A DNA stretch of 64,000 nt from Escherichia phage vB_EcoM_Kelasse: sequence record MW749001.1; one strand, given 5' to 3'. Position 1 is the first letter of the stretch. Every line of letters starts with the position of its first letter. The translations under genes were made by a program, and so were the position numbers. This document shows, in pieces, positions 2-58,339 of this stretch. The notes below the pieces were generated by a model. It had not been told where the DNA came from. It did no database searches and saw only the letters and a list, made by a program, of their open reading frames with translations.

Positions 2-271
2 TTATTTAAAACGAATAGTTGAATCCTTAAAGAACAGCCCAGAACATACTGTTCCTTCTACTTTCTGCCCGGTAGGTCCAATAGCACGAAATCCAGTATG
101 TTGGAAATCATTTTCAGAGCAACCGAACCAGTTATATCCAGTGATTTCAATATTCGTAAAACCACTTGATGATAAAATTTTAGTTGCATTATCAGCATCA
201 GTACATCCTACTAAAGATACTGCTAATACTAATGCTGCGATAGAACGATTAATATATTTCATAATTTTCAC
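2..271 (-). CDS. putative lipoprotein (89 aa)
   Basis: N-terminal signal peptide with lipobox LVGC; complete ORF. Confidence 0.55.
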   Translation of the reverse strand: MKIMKYINRSIAALVLAVSLVGCTDADNATKILSSSGFTNIEITGYNWFGCSENDFQHTGFRAIGPTGQKVEGTVCSGLFFKDSTIRFK

Positions 272-645
272 TTAAATTTAATAGCTTGAAGAAGACTAAT
301 AATTCTCAAGCGACTTCTTTCATCTTTAACTGTAAAGGAAAGAGGGTCGCCAGATTTCATGGTAATAGTGCATTCAAAATCAAAATCTTCTGTGACTTCT
401 TCGAAGAAGTCAAATTCTTCAGCATAAATTAGAACATTACTCTGCATACTGTGAAGAATTTTTCCGTTATTTCCAGACGCTGTACTAATCATCGTAACAT
501 TATGACCTTTCATATCTTCAACGATAAATTCGCTTGTAGATATTACAGCATTAATAGAACCATTCCTATAAATAGCAGACATTAGATATTTCTTTTCTTC
601 GCCTTCGCGAATACGATATTTCTTACCGATTTTAAACATAATCAC
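268..645 (-). CDS. hypothetical protein (about 123 aa)
   Basis: ORF track; track start is GTG, likely true start is ATG near 639 preceded by GGGTG. Confidence 0.5.
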   Translation of the reverse strand: MIMFKIGKKYRIREGEEKKYLMSAIYRNGSINAVISTSEFIVEDMKGHNVTMISTASGNNGKILHSMQSNVLIYAEEFDFFEEVTEDFDFECTITMKSGDPLSFTVKDERSRLRIISLLQAIKFK

Positions 646-818
646 CCTTTAAGTAAATCGTAAAAACCACCATTCACATGCTTAGGAGCAGAAGGCCGAC
701 GAGTAGACAAACGATGACATTTAGGGCAAACATCATTTTCTCGTTCAGAAATCTTTTTAATTTTTTCATATTCATGCCCGCAATCTTTAGATTGGCATTT
801 ATAATCATACATCGGCAT
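642..818 (-). CDS. small zinc-ribbon protein, FmdB-like (58 aa)
   Basis: Hand-translated, below ORF-track cutoff: MPMYDYKCQSKDCGHEYEKI...CPKCH; AAGGA Shine-Dalgarno 7 nt upstream; stop overlaps next start. Confidence 0.55.
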   Translation of the reverse strand: MPMYDYKCQSKDCGHEYEKIKKISERENDVCPKCHRLSTRRPSAPKHVNGGFYDLLKG

Positions 819-820
819 AA

Positions 821-1246
821 TTATTCCTTAAAATGTGCTTTCAACATCTGATACAAGGACCATGCCTGTTCATTATTTTCAATAGTAACTTTCATGACTG
901 GGAATTCTGTGAAATCTTCTATTTGTTCTTGCTCTTGCTCTTCCTGCTCTTGCTCTTCAGCTGCCTGATATGGATTTTCCACTTCATCAAAGAACTCGGC
1001 TTCGTTAGTAGAGAGCCAGATAAAGTTTTCGTCAAGGATATCACCATGTGTTGCATATCCAATTGTGCCAGTAAATGACATAATTTTAGTAGGACGACCA
1101 AGATGGTCAACATCTAAAATTTTAAAAGGATGCATACCTAAACGTCGTGCATAAATTCCGTTATCAGTATGGTCTTTAATAAAAGCTTCTTGAGCTTGTT
1201 TATTTTTAAATTGATACCATTTATTAACTTCAAATTTAATAGCCAT
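821..1246 (-). CDS. hypothetical protein with acidic EQ-repeat (141 aa)
   Basis: ORF track; low-complexity [12 protein letters not shown] segment. Confidence 0.5.
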
Positions 1247-1461
1247 TAATAAATTTCCTTCCAGTAAGTTGTGCCATCTTCAGTAATTTCACGAAATACA
1301 CCGTAAATTGGTTGTTTATCACCAACCTTTTCATACACATAAACCGAAGTCAAGTGAGTAAACTTGATGGTGTGTTCCTTTTGAACCACTACCAAATCTG
1401 GATCGAATAATACATCTTCAAATTCGTCATTAGTGCAATTCTGAACAATTTTACGTTTCAT
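1246..1461 (-). CDS. hypothetical protein (71 aa)
   Basis: ORF track; tightly packed with neighbours. Confidence 0.45.
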
Positions 1462-1474
1462 TACAATTTCCTCA

Positions 1475-1756
1475 TTAATTAAACAGTGGAGCGATACGTT
1501 TCAGAAGAGTAGCAGCACCTTTGGCGAATTTTACATCATGAAAAACAGTTTCTTCTTCCGTTACAACACGAGCTTTAATGTTTTCACAATCCCAATTTTT
1601 GCGAACAATCTTCAAAAGCTGCAGTAAATCTTTACATTCAGCAATATCGATAACACATCCACGAGAATCTTCCATTATAGCACGATAACCGTAAGCCATA
1701 CCATAATCGTTGAAAGATTGCTCGATGATAATTAAGTTTTCCATTTTATTCTCCAA
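1475..1756 (-). CDS. hypothetical protein (true start probably ATG near 1744)
   Basis: Track start is TTG; GGAG then ATG 4 codons downstream; leader shared with genes at 20204 and 62517. Confidence 0.5.
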   Translation of the reverse strand: MENKMENLIIIEQSFNDYGMAYGYRAIMEDSRGCVIDIAECKDLLQLLKIVRKNWDCENIKARVVTEEETVFHDVKFAKGAATLLKRIAPLFN

Positions 1757-1797
1757 GTTGTTTTCTGTATCAGTAGTTGATATTGATATAGTACCAT
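1741..1797 (-). repeat. promoter/leader repeat module, copy A
   Basis: About 55 nt near-identical to 62778..62834; contains 11-bp inverted repeat CAGTAGTTGAT / ATCAACTACTG. Confidence 0.7.
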
Positions 1798-1851
1798 AAT
1801 CAACTACTGATGTATATAGTTTTATGAAAAAATTTTAAACTTTATGCAAAT

Positions 1852-2304
1852 TTATGCTAAAGCTGCTTCGCACCATTTTTTAATTTGGAATTCAGGAACT
1901 ACCATGAACTGGCCTGCAAAAACAATATTGTAGAGCTTGACACCATCTTCTACCCAACGGTCCGAAATAAAACCAGCGACTTGATTCGTTGTCCATGGAG
2001 TTCCATCTGTTGCCGCCGCAATTGTGAATTTATGGTCTTTTACAACTAAAACTGAAGAACAAAGTTTCCATTTAAATGCGCTTTCTTCTGGCTCAATGAA
2101 CTGACTTGAGACATAACCAATGTTACCATCAGCGTCACGAACTTTAACCTCGTTACGACCAAAAACTGGATCACTTACAGAAAGAACTTCAACCAGCTTT
2201 CCTGCAACTTTAGAACGAGATGCAGACGATACACGCTTAATTTCACCGATAGTAATCATAATTTTTCTCTCTTTGTTGTTAAGATTTATACTCCGCAGGA
2301 CCAT
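1852..2304 (-). CDS. hypothetical protein, tandem paralog A (true start probably near 2259)
   Basis: C-terminus RWVEDGVKLYNIVFAGQFMVVP resembles neighbour; early promoter -10 lies inside track N-terminus. Confidence 0.55.
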   Translation of the reverse strand: MVLRSINLNNKERKIMITIGEIKRVSSASRSKVAGKLVEVLSVSDPVFGRNEVKVRDADGNIGYVSSQFIEPEESAFKWKLCSSVLVVKDHKFTIAAATDGTPWTTNQVAGFISDRWVEDGVKLYNIVFAGQFMVVPEFQIKKWCEAALA

Positions 2305-2332
2305 TATACTCTGGTCCCAAGAGTTTGTAAAC
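2303..2332 (-). promoter_or_regulatory. T4 early-type promoter
   Basis: Minus strand GTTTAC, 18-nt spacer, TATAAT. Confidence 0.5.
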
Positions 2333-2769
2333 TAGCTTACACGAACATTAATCACTGCGCTGCGAGGAACTACAGAGTACTCTCCAGCATGAACTACGTT
2401 CAGAAGTTCAACACCATCTTCAATCCACTGATCAGTCACCCATCCACCCACAGGATTCGCGAATGGACGACGAATATAAACTGCCTTACACAGCAGATCA
2501 GTTGGATCTTCAGGTTTTTCAATTTCTGTCAATAGACTAAAATCTTTTTCATAAATAATAAGCGGTGATACCATTCCATAATAGTTTCTAATTTCAATAT
2601 ACATCATACCGATAAGAATTCCGCTATTAACACTAATAACAGTAAAAGGATATCCGCCAGTTAAACCAAGAAGTTCACAAAACTTATTATAAGCTGCATT
2701 AGACAGTACCGAAAAATTCTTAATTTCATCAAATTTTTTCAATTGATAAACAGCATTATTTTTAATCAT
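2332..2769 (-). CDS. hypothetical protein, tandem paralog B (145 aa)
   Basis: C-terminus QWIEDGVELLNVVHAGEYSVVP similar to 1852..2304 product. Confidence 0.55.
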   Translation of the reverse strand: MIKNNAVYQLKKFDEIKNFSVLSNAAYNKFCELLGLTGGYPFTVISVNSGILIGMMYIEIRNYYGMVSPLIIYEKDFSLLTEIEKPEDPTDLLCKAVYIRRPFANPVGGWVTDQWIEDGVELLNVVHAGEYSVVPRSAVINVRVS

Positions 2770-2779
2770 AATTTTCTCT

Positions 2780-3322
2780 TTAATCTAAGGTAATAAAGCC
2801 TTTTAATTCGGCATGGGATTTACGGAACATTACTTGGTGCCCGCCAATGATAACTTGATCATCTGGAACTTCGTATACAGCGAGATAAAATCCTTTAGAA
2901 GCTAATTCTTCACGCTCTTCTCGTGTGAACCATCTCATCATATCATATTCGCTAGCGAAAGCAAAATGATAAAGAGCTATAAACCATCCTGGAATATAGT
3001 GATCTACGCCTACATATTCTTCTTTCTCAAAATTAGTATTAATTGCTATATTAGCATTTTTAACTAATAATTTGTCTTCATGCGGCACAGGAATTCTTTT
3101 ATTATCATTACTATGATGCATAAAATTGGGTCTGTCATAACCTACGCGTAATAACCACTCTTCACTCCATGAATCTATTATACTCCTGTACGGAGTTATT
3201 TGAACACAAAGATCTCGACGTATTGTTATAGCATCTTCATAATTAAGAATACTAAACGATGATTCAACACGATAAATTTTCATTTTATTATCCTCAGTAG
3301 CTATGGTGTTATAGTACCACAA
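2780..3322 (-). CDS. hypothetical protein (180 aa)
   Basis: ORF track. Confidence 0.5.
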   Translation of the reverse strand: MWYYNTIATEDNKMKIYRVESSFSILNYEDAITIRRDLCVQITPYRSIIDSWSEEWLLRVGYDRPNFMHHSNDNKRIPVPHEDKLLVKNANIAINTNFEKEEYVGVDHYIPGWFIALYHFAFASEYDMMRWFTREEREELASKGFYLAVYEVPDDQVIIGGHQVMFRKSHAELKGFITLD

Positions 3323-3346
3323 CTAACCGAGGAAGTAAACAACTTT

Positions 3347-4030
3347 TTATCGTTTTGTTGGAAGAGATAGAGGATCGCACTCTTCCTCTGACGGAGCATC
3401 TTCAAGACCCATAGCATAGCGTAAAGCGTACTTCATCATCAGGATGTCTTTCGCACAGTCATGAATAGAATCATGTGCAACGAATCCATCTAAAGTTCCC
3501 TTTGGAAGAGGACATGTGGTCATATCACGAACAAGCAGAAGTGCTTCAATTCTGGTACGAATATCACGCTGATTCCAGAATTTACATGGTTCTAACTTAA
3601 ATGTGTCAAGCTCATTCTCAGAAACGCCGTTAAGACGTTGAATATCGCGAATGAGATCGACTAAAATTGGAAAATCAAACGACATTCCACGGCACCAACC
3701 TTGAGATTTCCAAGGATCGATATTATGTGCATTGATGTAATCATTAAATTTTGCAATACCGTCAATAGTGCTTACATCTTCATCTGATGGTGCAATATTT
3801 TTTCTAGCTTCAGGAGATTGATTCTTCCACCATTCAATAGTGCTTTTAGTAAAAAGACGATGTCCTTTTTGGCTTTTTAAATCAAATTTGATTTTAATGC
3901 CACGTGAAACTAATTCATCAAATGTTTCAACCACTTCTGGATTAGGGTCAAAAGCAATTACAGCCAAATCAATAACAGCTGCTTTTTCACCGCTTCCCAT
4001 TGTTTCAAAATCTATAATAAAATCAAACAT
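3347..4030 (-). CDS. dexA: exonuclease A (DnaQ-like 3'-5' exonuclease)
   Basis: 227 aa; N-terminal DFETMG exo motif; size and position match T4 DexA. Confidence 0.85.
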   Translation of the reverse strand: MFDFIIDFETMGSGEKAAVIDLAVIAFDPNPEVVETFDELVSRGIKIKFDLKSQKGHRLFTKSTIEWWKNQSPEARKNIAPSDEDVSTIDGIAKFNDYINAHNIDPWKSQGWCRGMSFDFPILVDLIRDIQRLNGVSENELDTFKLEPCKFWNQRDIRTRIEALLLVRDMTTCPLPKGTLDGFVAHDSIHDCAKDILMMKYALRYAMGLEDAPSEEECDPLSLPTKR

Positions 4031-14791: not shown

Positions 14792-16218
14792 TAAAATTTT
14801 AATTCATTTGCCAAAGCATCTAACTGAGCTCGAGTGGATTCATTTCTTTGATAGCGATTCTGCTCAGCCTGAATCTGTTGTGAACCTGCTACTTCGTTCA
14901 CTTCAGTTGGAGTAGAATCTTGTTCAATTTCTACCCATTTCTGATTTCCCTTTTGAACACCCATCAAAAACTTATTCCACTTATTCTTATCGCCATATCG
15001 TGATTTGATTTGCTTAATGAGTTGTTGTTCAGCAGCTGCTAGCTCCTCGGTTTCAATGACCGCAAGCATAAAATCAGCTGTTGCTGGAAGACCAGCAGAT
15101 TCTGCAATATCGCTCATGTTAACATCGGAAGAGTCCCAAGCTTGTTTACCGACCTGTGCTGCAGTCCAAAGAACAGTTTCGGTTTCAACAGCCAGAGCAC
15201 GCAATTCCTCTGCAATAGCTTTAACAGTTGTGTAACTATTTTCTGAATAAACTCTGATGCGGCAAGATTTACAAATACCTAGATAGTCGACAATAATGAT
15301 TGTTGGAACAAAATTCTTCTTGAGCTTCAATTCATTCAAGAGAGACCTGAATGTGTTAGCGTCTGCTCCACCAGTAGGATACTGTTTAACGATTAAACGA
15401 CCAAGGGTAGATTTCTCACGCCATTTTTCCATTTTTCCTTTATATTCAGCGTAAGAAATATGCCCATCATCAATGTCATCAAGAGAAACATCAAGCATGT
15501 TAGCGTCAATACGCTTAGCACAGACTTCTTCTGCCATTTCCATGGAAATGTAAAGAACATTATGTCCGAGCTGTAAATAATCTGCTGCTAATGAACACAG
15601 ACCTAATGATTTACCAACGTTAACGCCAGCCATTAAAACGTTCAGTGTTCCAGTCTCAGCTCCGCCTTTAGTAATTTTGTTTAGAATTCTGAGTTTAAAT
15701 GGAACTTTACGAGCTTTATTCATATAAGATAGCCAACGTGCTTCATAGTCATCCATCCAATCATGACCAACGTAACTATCAAATGAAATAGATAATGCTT
15801 GCCGCATGATGTCAGGAATAGCACCAACATCCGGCATTTTCTTATTTCGTTTTTCCGGAGGAAGCTCAGCATTAGTTTGAATTTCGATTATTTTAGACGT
15901 AGCATTAAACATCGCCCTTTGCTGAACATATTTTTCTGTTTCTTTTACTAACCAGCTGTGGTCTTCTGGAGAATCAGCCAGTTTTGAAATAAGTGTTTTT
16001 ACACCAGAATATTCTGTTTCAGTAAATGAACTATTTTCTAATGCAACATTTAACGCATTAATAGATGGAACGCTATGATACTCATTGACATGAGATTTAA
16101 TTAATTTGAATGTATTTTTAGCTGGACCACTTTCAAAATATTCTGAATCCATATATGGCCAAACTTTTGAAAAATAAGCTTGATCAAATATAAGATGAGA
16201 AAGAATAATTTCTACCAC
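14791..16218 (-). CDS. 41: replicative DNA helicase gp41
   Basis: 475 aa; DnaB-like, Walker A GVNVGKS. Confidence 0.92.
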   Translation of the reverse strand: MVEIILSHLIFDQAYFSKVWPYMDSEYFESGPAKNTFKLIKSHVNEYHSVPSINALNVALENSSFTETEYSGVKTLISKLADSPEDHSWLVKETEKYVQQRAMFNATSKIIEIQTNAELPPEKRNKKMPDVGAIPDIMRQALSISFDSYVGHDWMDDYEARWLSYMNKARKVPFKLRILNKITKGGAETGTLNVLMAGVNVGKSLGLCSLAADYLQLGHNVLYISMEMAEEVCAKRIDANMLDVSLDDIDDGHISYAEYKGKMEKWREKSTLGRLIVKQYPTGGADANTFRSLLNELKLKKNFVPTIIIVDYLGICKSCRIRVYSENSYTTVKAIAEELRALAVETETVLWTAAQVGKQAWDSSDVNMSDIAESAGLPATADFMLAVIETEELAAAEQQLIKQIKSRYGDKNKWNKFLMGVQKGNQKWVEIEQDSTPTEVNEVAGSQQIQAEQNRYQRNESTRAQLDALANELKF

Positions 16219-38893: not shown

Positions 38894-38998
38894 TTAAGTC
38901 ATTTATCGTTGGTTCATTATATACTGTTTCTTCATCAGTGTAAACCGGTTCTTCCGGCTCTGGCTCTACAGTTTCCCATCTAGCCGCCCACCAAGGTT

Positions 38999-39319
38999 TT
39001 ATAGCGTAATCCATTCTCGTACTGTCTGAGTTACTACACGTTCATGGGGCTCGACTAGTTCAACAGTCGGAACTGCATAATACCAGTCAGAATGATAAGA
39101 ACCTGACCGAGATTCATTTACAGCCACATGTACATTATGTTTTGGACTAAAGTAAACACACTGACGATATTGACATTTACCATCTTGCACCCAGTCTTCT
39201 ATTTCGACAGGTTTAAGATAATCGGAAAAATCGAAATCATAGTTTTCCGAAAATGCATCATGGTCTTCAATGATTTCGCTCAGAACTGCATCAACATCTA
39301 ATTTATTTTCAATAGTCAT
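38999..39319 (-). CDS. hypothetical protein (106 aa)
   Basis: ORF track. Confidence 0.5.
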   Translation of the reverse strand: MTIENKLDVDAVLSEIIEDHDAFSENYDFDFSDYLKPVEIEDWVQDGKCQYRQCVYFSPKHNVHVAVNESRSGSYHSDWYYAVPTVELVEPHERVVTQTVREWITL

Positions 39320-54760: not shown

Positions 54761-55222
54761 TCATTGAGTTTTAATTACTGCTTTAGAAGCCTTTCCTGGT
54801 AAACGACGACTGTTAATAATTGCCATCCTACATTGAAGTGACGGGTCTTTGAACTTCGCATTAGGTTTACAAACTGTAAATCCAAGCCAAAGATTTCCAT
54901 CTGTGATTTCTAAACGTCCAGGACGGTATTCAACCCCATCAATAAAATCCTCGTCAATGTCAGGACGCGGAGGCATACTCAGGAATTCATTAACTTCTAA
55001 AACATGGTCTTTTATTTTGTGGAATAATTCAAAAACATATGTCTCATCAATCTCCCGTTGAATTGCACGATCAAGAAGATGCTGAGAATATTTTAGATGA
55101 AACGATGAGACCCCTGCTGCTTTTGATGCCTCACGAATCTCATTGTTAATTTGACGAAACTCCGACTCAAAGTGACGACGAAGCTTATTTCGACGGATAA
55201 AAACTTCTGTGTTGATAGTCAT
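54761..55222 (-). CDS. regB: endoribonuclease RegB
   Basis: 153 aa; recognised as T4 RegB. Confidence 0.88.
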   Translation of the reverse strand: MTINTEVFIRRNKLRRHFESEFRQINNEIREASKAAGVSSFHLKYSQHLLDRAIQREIDETYVFELFHKIKDHVLEVNEFLSMPPRPDIDEDFIDGVEYRPGRLEITDGNLWLGFTVCKPNAKFKDPSLQCRMAIINSRRLPGKASKAVIKTQ

Positions 55223-55281
55223 GTTATTCTCCTCTTAACTGATAGAAAAATTATACCACAGTCAAGAGGAAAAGTAAACAG

Positions 55282-55602
55282 TTATTCTTTAAATCTAATC
55301 AATTTATTCATAGACTTTGAAACTTCTGCACGAACCTCATGTAGGTTTTTAAGCTGTTCAAGACGCTGCTCATAGTAAGCAATTTCATCTTCTTCGAGAC
55401 AGTCCTGCGAATCTTCTTTAAGATAACGTGCATAGTCCTGGAAAGCTTTACGGACTACTTCCTGGAAGTCATCAAGACTTTGAATTTTCTTAGGAGCAAC
55501 AGATACACGACGAGGGGCAGTATAATACTCATAACCAAACCCTGCGCTTAATTGAGCCATTAATATTTTTCCTCTGGTTGGAACACAGCACGACAAGCCC
55601 AC
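55282..55602 (-). CDS. hypothetical protein (106 aa)
   Basis: ORF track. Confidence 0.5.
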
Positions 55603-55862
55603 ATACTGGCTTCTTTGAGTTTCGTTTTAGCAATAGTTAACTGATCGAGGCTTTCAGCATAATTCTTCGCGAATTCACAGTCTTCACAATTATCTAGTGC
55701 TTCCCAGAATTCATCGTATAAAGCGTCAAAGATAAGTCCTAAACGAACTTCAGCGTCTTTAATAGCATTCACTTTACCTATTTTCTCTTCAGTATGTGGT
55801 TTATAACCCTTAATATCTTCAATCATATTTGACTTCCTCACCAGTACATAAATCATATTCAA
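55560..55862 (-). CDS. hypothetical protein (100 aa); candidate positional counterpart of T4 vs.4
   Basis: ORF track; position in the block after regB; no sequence confirmation. Confidence 0.4.
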
Positions 55863-56040
55863 CTAAACGAATAGGTTCATGAATGCCATATCCCTGAACA
55901 GAAATTTCTGTCGTAGGATAAATTCCACTAATATCACCCATGTTCCACGCTTCATTAAATTGCTGTTCGCCTGAATTACTAAACCATTTGGCGAAAGCAT
56001 TTAGCACATCTTTAGAACCTTCAATAATTATCTTTGCCAT
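55819..56040 (-). CDS. hypothetical protein (73 aa)
   Basis: ORF track. Confidence 0.5.
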   Translation of the reverse strand: MAKIIIEGSKDVLNAFAKWFSNSGEQQFNEAWNMGDISGIYPTTEISVQGYGIHEPIRLVEYDLCTGEEVKYD

Positions 56041-56402
56041 TACAAACTCTCAGTAAAGGTACGAGCGATAACGTCGCGCTGCTGTTCCGGAGTCAGAGAG
56101 TTAAAGCGAACTGCATAACCGGATACACGGATGGTCAGCTGCGGATATTTTTCCGGATGCTTAACTGCATCTTCCAGAGTTTCACGACGCAGAACGTTAA
56201 CGTTCAGGTGCTGACCACCTTCAATTTTAACTGTAGGCTGTGGTTCAATTTCAATTTCACGGGCATGCAAACCGTAGAAAATTTCTGGGTCTACAAAAGA
56301 GTCCTCTTTAAAGGTTTTAGAGACAATAATTCGTGCTTGAATACCATCTTCAAAATAAATAGTACCTTTATGTGTGCCTTCAAGAATTTGATATGCTTTC
56401 AT
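56040..56402 (-). CDS. autonomous glycyl radical cofactor GrcA/YfiD-like protein
   Basis: C-terminal [29 protein letters not shown] glycyl-radical domain; that half is visibly GC-richer than its surroundings. Confidence 0.85.
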
Positions 56403-56408
56403 ATAACC

Positions 56409-56789
56409 TCAATTAGAAAATAAATTTATCCAAGATTGTTCTTTAATTAAAAATGGCTCAGAATCATATGCCATTAAACTTTGGGTAATTAGTCCTTTAA
56501 AAGGCCCATCAATAAATTCCATGGTAAAATATGGAATTTTATTCATTAATCTTGCATTAGGAGCAGTACACAAAACTCTGCATCCTTTGAATACGCCTTT
56601 TTGTAATTTGTATTGCTTAGGATAAAATTCGCTCAAGACGTTGTTATTTGCCAAAATTTCAAAATGATTCACCAATTTATTTTTAATAGTTTTTGGCGAA
56701 AAATAAAGATATTCGAAAAGTTGCGTGTCTGTCATCATTGCATTCCGATTATGAAAAACTGTGGACGAGTAATACCACCAATGCAACAC
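56409..56789 (-). CDS. hypothetical protein (126 aa)
   Basis: ORF track. Confidence 0.5.
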   Translation of the reverse strand: MLHWWYYSSTVFHNRNAMMTDTQLFEYLYFSPKTIKNKLVNHFEILANNNVLSEFYPKQYKLQKGVFKGCRVLCTAPNARLMNKIPYFTMEFIDGPFKGLITQSLMAYDSEPFLIKEQSWINLFSN

Positions 56790-57322
56790 TTGCTATTACA
56801 ACAGTAATGTACAGTTTCAATATGAATATTGTAAATTTTATCCATATCAGGAGATTTAACAGGCTCATCAATTATATACAAAATCCGCGAAAGCGATAAA
56901 CCTCTGAACTTGCTTCCTTTATTACCGATAAAACTACGGACAGAATCGGTAAATAAGCGGAATCGAATATCATCGCTAGAATAACGAGAAAATTCTTTTT
57001 TAATGTGGCCCGCAGAAATTTTAGCGTAAGCTGAAGTATTAGAAAGAACAATAACTGTTCCACCATCATACAGCCAATTAGCAGCAAAGTTAGTCACAGC
57101 AGTTGATTTACCGGATTGTCTGCCACCATCTAATCGAAGTGTGCAATACTGCTTGAGTAAGTCTTCAAATGGTGGGATATAATCGTTTTTACAAATTTCT
57201 TCTACTCTAGCATCAGAATGGTGTGTAAAAGCATTCATCAGGGATAGATAAGGACCAGTTAAAAATGTTCTCATTTTATTCTCTCTAAATTTGGGCCATT
57301 CCATGGCGCATGAATTGTCCAT
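56735..57322 (-). CDS. P-loop NTPase (195 aa)
   Basis: Walker A GGRQSGKST, Walker B ILYIIDEP. Confidence 0.55.
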   Translation of the reverse strand: MDNSCAMEWPKFRENKMRTFLTGPYLSLMNAFTHHSDARVEEICKNDYIPPFEDLLKQYCTLRLDGGRQSGKSTAVTNFAANWLYDGGTVIVLSNTSAYAKISAGHIKKEFSRYSSDDIRFRLFTDSVRSFIGNKGSKFRGLSLSRILYIIDEPVKSPDMDKIYNIHIETVHYCCNSKCCIGGITRPQFFIIGMQ

Positions 57323-57427
57323 TTCTGTATTTACCCATTACCGCACTTGGGCTCGACCTTATTACAGGTTGGCGGGAATCCCTCATAGAATCATGAGGTC
57401 CAGCTTGTTCCCATATTTCTTATTTGC

Positions 57428-57901
57428 TTATTTGAATGATTTGACGTACTGAATAGAACCTTTACTATTCACGAAAGCGATTTTACCATTTTTATTATAC
57501 ATGGTAGCAGTACGCTGATAGCCATAAGTTTGTTTACCAGATTGATAACCAACTAATGCGAAATTATCTTCACCCATTTTATTCTGTTTAGCGCGAATAC
57601 GTTCATGACCGTGTGCCATAAGAACCTTAGCATCACCAGTTGAAATTGATCTACGAGTTTTTTCATCTTCAACTGTATTAACAAAGTCGTCAAATGAATC
57701 AAATTTAGCATGGGATTTATTATACAGTTTTCCATCTACTGCATAATTATATCCCTGTACATCCATCTCAACTTCTGTACCATCATCCAATACAGCAGTG
57801 ATTTTTTGACCTTTTTTAAATTTCAAAAGATCAGTAAAAGATTCAGCAATAATTTGAGAATTAATAGCTGCTTCAGTGATAAATTCTTGATATGTTTTCA
57901 T
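57428..57901 (-). CDS. internal-protein-like protein with capsid targeting sequence (157 aa)
   Basis: N-terminus MKTYQEFITEA matches the T4 internal-protein targeting motif. Confidence 0.6.
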   Translation of the reverse strand: MKTYQEFITEAAINSQIIAESFTDLLKFKKGQKITAVLDDGTEVEMDVQGYNYAVDGKLYNKSHAKFDSFDDFVNTVEDEKTRRSISTGDAKVLMAHGHERIRAKQNKMGEDNFALVGYQSGKQTYGYQRTATMYNKNGKIAFVNSKGSIQYVKSFK

Positions 57902-57910
57902 ATGTTTCCT

Positions 57911-58339
57911 TTAAATGTAAATATTTTTGCCGTAATACTTGTACCAGTGTGGCTTCATTAAAATTTTTTCATCGAGTCGTTGTTGACTCAATTTAATAGC
58001 TGATTTGCATGGATTATAATCATTTTTCCATTCTGCTGGAATATCGCTGATGTCAGGAACTTCAGTATCTTTTATACTAAACCCACGTTTTAAGCATTCC
58101 GTTATAATGTCTGATTGACGCTTTCGCAAAAATTCTAACTTATCGTAAAAGAACGTAACATGACCAGAGCCTAAAATAAACTCGGAAGATATTTTAAAAT
58201 CTTTAACCCGCTTACCATTTGCCACATGTTTACGAACTATACCAAAAACACGCGGCAATTCACGATACTCAGCCATAAGATGTTGGTCGGTCAGTTCAGA
58301 AACAAGTGTTAAATTGATACGAGTCATAATTTCCTCCAA
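57911..58339 (-). CDS. denV: endonuclease V (pyrimidine dimer DNA glycosylase) DenV
   Basis: Recognised as T4 DenV; true start probably internal MTRINLTLV. Confidence 0.88.

Follow-up and report, generated by a model that had tools for sequence, protein, structure and literature searches.

T4 is the textbook virulent phage: it destroys the DNA of its host, and the usual view is that it has hardly any sequence in common with E. coli. How a gene of such a phage can come to contain a segment that is indistinguishable from the current chromosomal gene of its host is the question raised by vs.6, the phage homolog of grcA. It was addressed here in 64,000 nt of Escherichia phage vB_EcoM_Kelasse (MW749001.1), a stretch referred to below as the window. 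In this phage, vs.6 belongs to the block denV - vs.8 - vs.7 - vs.6 - vs.5 - vs.4 - vs.3 - regB, and identity over positions 55000-58000 is 99.4% with Enterobacteria phage Kha5h and 97-98% with a large number of other T4-type phages. The gene is reported for all six T4-like genomes that were compared by Nolan et al. (2006; PMC1524935). The features considered are the following:

56409..56738, minus strand: vs.7, phage gene upstream of vs.6, used as a flank control
56040..56402, minus strand: vs.6 (Y06I of T4), 120 aa, phage autonomous glycyl-radical cofactor, homolog of GrcA
56225..56402, minus strand: phage-type 5' half of vs.6 (codons 1-59), AT-rich, diverged homolog of the N-terminal part of GrcA
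56225..56228, minus strand: 5' junction of the tract, with mismatches (phage AAA ATT, Lys-Ile; host CGC GTT, Arg-Val)
56050..56224, minus strand: probable gene-conversion tract of host origin, 175 nt without any difference from an E. coli grcA allele
56040..56049, minus strand: 3' tail of vs.6, ancestral phage sequence, with mismatches to the host at 56049, 56046 and 56045
55819..56040, minus strand: vs.5, downstream of vs.6, whose ATG overlaps the vs.6 stop codon (from the open reading frame and the annotations of relatives)

The vs.6 gene and its host-identical tract

The product of vs.6 is a small, stand-alone protein of about 14 kDa whose C-terminal part is a Gly_radical domain (Pfam PF01228, E = 2.8e-18, 66.8 bits for a cut-off of 22.2), in which the radical glycine is G95 of the motif RVSG95Y. 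This domain aligns with residues 697-759 of PflB (E = 5e-26) and is homologous to the C-terminus that PflB loses on oxygen cleavage. Residues 22-120 were aligned by phmmer to residues 28-127 of GrcA in PDB entry 6owr (E = 8.6e-42), and the whole protein is 100% identical to Vs.6 (Y06I) of T4 strain GT7. Its 59 C-terminal residues are identical to those of E. coli GrcA, the match that the preliminary description had pointed out for this end of the protein. The N-terminal half is homologous to the N-terminal region of GrcA (hhalign of the phage and host profiles: probability 96%, E = 3.9e-9), and neither blastn nor explicit alignment detected any nucleotide similarity between the 5' half of the gene and E. 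coli grcA. From these profiles, we regard the 5' half as an anciently diverged homolog of the N-terminal half of GrcA.

Two genes downstream, the vs.4 open reading frame (55560..55826, minus strand) encodes 88 aa. The record of the closely related phage vB_EcoM_P8 lists an 'anti-CBASS protein 2' feature, for which it names no gene, in the stretch matching 55560..55826; we take Acb2 to be T4 Vs.4.

Composition differs between the two parts of vs.6. The 5' half (56225..56402) has a GC content of 0.343, and GC3 is 0.20 for codons 1-59 versus 0.44 for codons 60-118. In the 3' half, Leu, Pro and Arg are encoded exclusively by the codons that E. coli prefers (CTG, CCG, CGT/CGC). The segment 56051..56224 reaches a GC content of 0.50, against a mean of 0.345 for the window (z = 3.8, with an SD of 0.041 between windows of 174 nt). 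Windows of this size that are as GC-rich make up 0.013% of the total and all lie at 56043..56224, which is therefore the GC-richest spot of the 64 kb. With 100-nt windows, GC rises to 0.51 at 56050-56174 and is 0.24-0.35 on either side. The preliminary description, made from the letters alone, had pointed out a phage-like first half and a GC-richer 3' part between AT-rich flanks, and the quantitative profile agrees with it on both counts. The next GC-richest 174-nt stretches of the window, 15030..15203 (0.494) and 38938..39111 (0.483), were rejected as host patches because they gave no megablast match to E. coli.

The tract 56050..56224 (also called the patch below) encodes the glycyl-radical domain (EGGQHLN...RTFTE). 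By explicit alignment, its 175 nt match exactly the grcA allele of E. coli strain 88-3493, so that the nucleotide comparison with host grcA proposed in the preliminary description gives a clear answer. In a blastn search of 5,426 complete E. coli genomes, nt 179-363 of vs.6 were up to 98.4% identical to grcA, with a grcA match of at least 95% in every genome. For the patch itself, identity is at least 99% in 2,823 genomes and 95-99% in the other 2,603. Megablast of the entire 64-kb window in three pieces against the same genomes returned no E. coli match beyond the tract. Given a background identity of about 80%, which is the level in unconverted phage homologs, an exact run of 175 nt would arise by chance with a probability of about 1e-16 to 1e-19. 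Hence, vs.6 is a mosaic whose inner segment has host composition and a far higher nucleotide identity to the host than the remainder of the gene. The evidence for recombination is this run-length probability together with the segment-wise dS and the haplotype sharing described below.

Both ends of the tract are bordered by phage sequence. At the 5' junction, AAAA is found in all Tequatrovirus and Mosigvirus copies, and AAA also in unconverted relatives. At the other end, the phage reads GAG AGT TTG TAA where the host reads GAA AGC CTG TAA, and the vs.6 stop codon overlaps the vs.5 start in TAATG, the host sequence being TAAGG. The tail GAGAGTCTATAATG is common to Mosigvirus, RB16-like and KP15 phages. 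The flanks on both sides, 5' AAA(A) and 3' GAGAGT(C/T)T(A/G)TAATG, are thus also present in phages whose gene is unconverted. With the tract enclosed in this way by ancestral phage DNA, the event was the conversion of a homolog already resident in the phage and not the insertion of a new gene. The tract is accordingly best read as an internal gene-conversion tract in the resident phage grcA homolog, and not as an end-joined capture. Phage-type sequence just upstream of the tract and in the last codons places both crossovers inside vs.6, and the tract cannot extend past the vs.5 start because vs.5 has no homology to the host. The chimera proposed in the preliminary description therefore stands, but its host-like part is not the whole 3' end of the gene, as the last ~10 nt are phage sequence.

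From phage to phage, each of the last three sense codons can be either host-like or phage-like, in mosaic fashion (GAA/GAG, AGC/AGT, CTG/TTG/CTA; loci L082-L087 and L165-L179), the host-like ones being for instance GAA in T4, AGC in sb3 and CTG in locus L084. Tract ends that differ between phages, or mismatch repair acting in patches, could have produced this mosaic; its pattern is discontinuous, and it was therefore set aside as evidence for different tract ends. The GAG codon of the tail creates a GAGAG motif, located 8 nt before the vs.5 ATG.

The synonymous sites of the patch identify the donor. None of about 43 synonymous sites differs between the window and E. coli (dS = 0), whereas dS from E. 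coli over the same codons is 0.35 for Citrobacter, 0.55 for K. pneumoniae and 1.03 for Salmonella. Therefore, the donor is E. coli itself. Amino-acid identity has no diagnostic value in this respect, since the radical domain is nearly invariant at the protein level across phage and bacterial copies.

Taken as a whole, we consider it highly probable that the radical-domain part of a resident phage grcA homolog was overwritten by conversion with host grcA, with further exchange afterwards and an independent event in Klebsiella phages. The resident gene would be an anciently acquired, full-length phage homolog of host grcA. In T-even phages of E. coli, its radical-domain part would have been replaced through homologous recombination with chromosomal grcA, with a 5' crossover where phage-host similarity begins (GAAGGTGG...) and a 3' crossover just before the last three codons. 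The latter would have to precede the stop codon, as there is no homology beyond it and the vs.5 start must be kept. The recombination pathway may be that of T4 UvsX/UvsY acting on fragments of host DNA. T4 degrades the DNA of its host and replaces cytosine with hydroxymethylcytosine, and both properties could either limit or fuel exchange with the host. Once established, about 175 bp of perfect homology would ease further exchange, and the patch would keep sampling current E. coli alleles instead of drifting towards an AT-rich composition. T4-like phages of Klebsiella would have undergone the same process separately, the donor in their case being K. pneumoniae grcA.

Spread and possible exchange of the patch in phages of E. 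coli and Klebsiella

At an identity of at least 95%, the patch occurs in 637 records of the phage collection; only eight others lie at 90-95%, and the rest at 90% or less. The carriers belong to both Tequatrovirus and Mosigvirus, and the comparison of the window with Mosigvirus gives very different values along the region. Nucleotide identity is 71-72% in vs.7 (dS 1.17) and 71% in vs.5 (dS 1.84), and dS is saturated in vs.4. Within vs.6, it is 88-90% in the 5' half (dS 0.45; Mosigvirus locus L169), 97-99% in the patch (dS 0.097) and 82% in the 3' tail. The dS of the patch being far below that of the flanks, the patch is at least 10-fold more recent than the separation of Tequatrovirus from Mosigvirus. 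The low dS of the 5' half between the two genera may result from recombination between phage genera anchored by the patch, or from an unusual synonymous constraint. Conversion is not inevitable, since several E. coli phages (RB16/RB43, FL38 and T5-like phages) have unconverted vs.6 homologs. Tequatroviruses isolated on Yersinia or Salmonella keep the E. coli-type patch.

Haplotypes were compared among 27 phage copies and seven Escherichia alleles, and the phage patches were found on four different E. coli haplotypes. Strain 88-3493 has the same haplotype as the window and phage sb3, and strain 2-101 (A at site 21) the same as T4, pSs-1, fPS-90 and others. A111 is common to phages '85' and KMB22 and to E. 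coli O104:H4. Phage PD112 shares the four-site haplotype A21/A33/A114/T165 with E. coli TR01 and A16, its patch being 98.3% identical to the best E. coli allele versus 96.0% to the allele of the window. By a rough hand calculation that assumes independent mutations, with seven variant sites placed randomly on 58 third-codon positions, this four-site match has a chance probability of about 1e-5 to 1e-6. A21 and A33 are also seen in unconverted phages, and these shared variants could be ancestral. Every one of the 27 phage copies differs from the reference E. coli allele (88-3493) at no more than about seven positions. Moreover, the changes private to phages comprise 14 GC->AT versus 4 AT->GC, a bias that is the decay expected toward phage composition. 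These patterns are suggestive of a founding conversion followed by continued exchange with the host, repeated exchange being suggested rather than proven because the haplotype sample is small.

A single recent conversion in one T-even lineage, followed by spread purely from phage to phage with no further host exchange, would also account for several of these observations. The 5' junction is identical in all 27 copies from E. coli phages, and the 3' tail is fixed in Mosigvirus and variable among Tequatrovirus copies, a pattern that one founding conversion fits as well as repeated exchange with the host does. The dS of 0.45 in the 5' half, against 1.2-1.8 in the flanks, is likewise what would be expected if the whole gene had moved between genera. 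However, identical junctions do not discriminate between single and repeated exchange, since the junctions are forced by the extent of homology, and the patches match at least four distinct E. coli haplotypes, including the one that PD112 shares with TR01 and A16. We therefore judge a single conversion without later host exchange to be unlikely, though it deserves consideration.

Under the reading that we prefer, a founding conversion with continued host exchange, the tract, its junctions, the donor species, the separate Klebsiella event and the sharing of haplotypes are shown directly, while the direction of each later exchange, and any selective benefit of matching the host at the nucleotide level, we infer. 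A more tentative extension, which we rate as slightly less likely than not, is that the tract acts as a standing homology 'portal' of about 175 bp. Alleles of grcA would pass through it repeatedly, possibly in both directions, which would keep the spare part synchronised with the PflA/PflB of the current host and would provide an anchor for recombination between phage genera. If true, this portal would be a general and measurable route of gene flow from hosts to virulent phages, having arisen independently in phages of E. coli and of Klebsiella.

The second case concerns Klebsiella T4-like phages with genomes of about 167 kb, i.e. Roth67, vB_VIPKPNOM02 and an IMG/VR locus (L107), whose vs.6 has a GC content of 0.37 in the 5' half and 0.59 in the radical-domain part. 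The 80 bacterial grcA loci that we had drawn from genome contigs did not include that of K. pneumoniae, and the donor was found by scanning metagenomes with a 62-nt exact string of the Klebsiella-phage tract. This string occurs in 25 metagenome contigs, only one of which is phage. Almost all of the non-phage contigs, which are up to 620 kb long, carry a full-length bacterial grcA, and an exact protein look-up of the bacterial grcA bearing the 62-mer returned GRCA_KLEP7 of Klebsiella pneumoniae. The Klebsiella phages and K. pneumoniae grcA share exact runs of 101-158 nt, and their patches are identical to it at 166-169 of 174 positions, versus 151-154 of 174 for E. coli. The tract breaks off 25 nt short of the last nucleotide of the stop codon, a 3' junction unlike that of the E. 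coli phages. Furthermore, the variant residues follow the host: LLDAVEH in the Klebsiella type and LEDAVKH in the E. coli type. Judged by its nucleotide sequence, the tract of these phages is an independent conversion with K. pneumoniae grcA as donor. The existence of an E. coli-type and a Klebsiella-type tract implies that virulent phages overwrote their own gene with host DNA at least twice.

The copies from Slopekvirus-type Klebsiella phages (KP15, i.e. locus L098, and loci L099 and L111) also encode the residues LLDAVEH, with only about 81% nucleotide identity to K. pneumoniae grcA and a GC3 of about 0.4. They may stem from earlier conversions whose composition has meanwhile drifted towards that of the phage.

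Role of the Vs.6 protein

According to Wagner et al. (2001), as cited in PMC8683613, YfiD and Y06I take the glycyl radical from PFL activase and restore oxygen-cleaved PFL. This rescue, published for a protein identical to Vs.6, presumably carries over to the phage studied here, and the preliminary description was right to name the T4 homolog as a spare glycyl-radical domain for PFL. The host activase PflA would put the radical on Vs.6, which would then replace the oxygen-cleaved C-terminus of host PFL. Since both partners, PFL activase and PFL, are host proteins, the domain would be held to the host sequence. At the protein level, Vs.6 thus behaves like the known pair formed by T4 Y06I and E. 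coli YfiD/GrcA, with nothing different; what is added here is the origin of the domain at the nucleotide level.

The phage NrdD (36060..37877) had also been mentioned in the preliminary description as a possible client. NrdD is itself a glycyl-radical enzyme that oxygen cleaves at its radical glycine, and both NrdD and its activase NrdG are encoded in the window. A role in nucleotide metabolism was also speculated upon in the text of Nolan et al. (2006; PMC1524935). However, BLASTP of Vs.6 against the NrdD of the window gave E = 2.7, with an alignment that does not include the NrdD radical motif, and the C-terminus of NrdD (RRTCGYLGNPNERGFN...) belongs to another domain type. The domain of Vs.6 is 100% that of GrcA, with its alignment to PflB 697-759, and it tracks the GrcA of the host (E. 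coli type versus Klebsiella type), not a phage protein; in addition, PFL rescue has been published for the identical protein. That Vs.6 would serve mainly as a spare radical domain for NrdD, and not for host PFL, is in our opinion very improbable, and NrdD was dropped as a client that the sequence does not support.

In the window, nrdD is one uninterrupted open reading frame of 605 aa. The reference T4 nrdD (sunY) presumably carries a group I intron, which appears to be absent from the nrdD of this phage.

Direction of transfer, precedents and implications

The two halves of E. coli grcA are uniform in GC content (0.47 and 0.495) and diverge in parallel from those of Salmonella, Citrobacter and Klebsiella, which sets the direction of transfer as host to phage. 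Identity by itself gives no direction, and a T-even phage could on that ground have supplied E. coli with the 3' half of grcA. Nevertheless, besides the uniformity and parallel divergence of the host gene, the composition of the patch is host-like and not phage-like, and the versions found in unconverted phage relatives are AT-rich. This makes transfer from phage to host extremely improbable as the origin of the shared segment, although single alleles may occasionally have passed back.

Selection on the protein does not explain the patch either. The radical domain of RB16-type and RB43-type phages is respectively 100% and 97% identical in amino acids to that of E. coli, but only 82% identical in nucleotides in both cases. 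Similarly, the copies from Karamvirus, Slopekvirus, T5-like and jumbo phages are 70-85% identical in nucleotides to any of the 80 enterobacterial and Pasteurellaceae grcA genes, with a GC3 of 0.15-0.45 in the radical-domain DNA. One could imagine a single ancient capture of the host domain, with nucleotide identity kept ever since by purifying selection on protein and codon usage: the domain is extremely conserved at the protein level in all copies, and grcA codons are strongly biased. Yet such selection has left the RB16/RB43-type domain at 82% and the T5-like and Karamvirus copies at 70-80% nucleotide identity. Moreover, the window and E. coli agree at all 43 synonymous sites while dS between E. 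coli and Salmonella is 1.03, and the flanking genes of the two phage genera have a dS of 1.2-1.8. An ancient capture is hardly credible and is in practice refuted by the synonymous-site data. An artefact, i.e. contamination by host reads or a chimeric assembly, has practically no chance of being correct: it has in its favour the unusual composition alone, and it is refuted by the replication of the same in-frame mosaic in 637 independent phage records (patch identity of at least 95%), T4 included, with phage-specific junctions on both sides.

Host-phage intragenic recombination with patchy G+C has been described for psbA and psbD of cyanophages, as presented by Zeidner et al. (2005) and Sullivan et al. 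(2006; PMC1484495). As in these cases, vs.6 is a host-derived metabolic gene of a T4-like phage in which segments have been exchanged inside the gene. It differs from psbA in that the tract is a single, sharply bounded block of 175 nt with 100% identity to a named host species, whereas the signals in psbA are mosaics of a statistical kind, between sequences that have diverged further. It also concerns the best-studied virulent coliphage, with a parallel and independent tract in Klebsiella phages. The unconverted homologs (RB16/RB43, KP15, CC31, 44RR, T5) are the same gene with the same domain architecture, those of T4-like phages being also placed between vs.7 and vs.5, but the DNA of their radical domain has 70-85% identity with any host grcA and a phage-like GC3 of 0.15-0.45. 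The vs.6 tract is therefore an unusually clean new case of a known type of event. No report of the nucleotide-level identity of the patch was found in searchable full text, Petrov et al. (2010) included, and a mention in Wagner et al. (2001) or in the T4 genome review of Miller et al. (2003) is possible.

At this locus, a phage gene thus contains a sharply bounded block of present-day host sequence, comparable events have taken place in parallel in two host genera, and there are indications that alleles are still being exchanged. Hence, vs.6 can be viewed as a natural and easily assayed locus for the frequency of recombination between virulent phages and the chromosome of their host, which can also be used to probe which phage functions (UvsX/UvsY, host-DNA nucleases) control this exchange. 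It also shows a phage keeping a host-interacting "spare part" matched to its host (LEDAVKH versus LLDAVEH). The patch is a signature of the host species that could aid host prediction for T4-like phages. Pipelines in which host-identical segments count as contamination should take warning from it as well.

Some of the database records encountered call for caution of their own. A 19-kb contig filed as viral (IMGVR_UViG_2706794630_000006, locus L110) carries a grcA that is 83-92% identical to Yersinia grcA along its whole length. Its interpretation as a Yersinia-derived conversion, to which 91% identity with Yersinia grcA had pointed, was rejected, as the gene is a full-length, bacterial-type grcA with its leader, and the contig is probably bacterial or prophage-adjacent DNA. 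Furthermore, of the loci L024 and L032, one is an enterobacterial grcA on a 275-kb 'plasmid' of Klebsiella sp. WOUb02, and the other belongs to an assembly that bears the name Vagococcus sp. WN89Y although Vagococcus is Gram-positive; the latter assembly looks mislabelled or contaminated.
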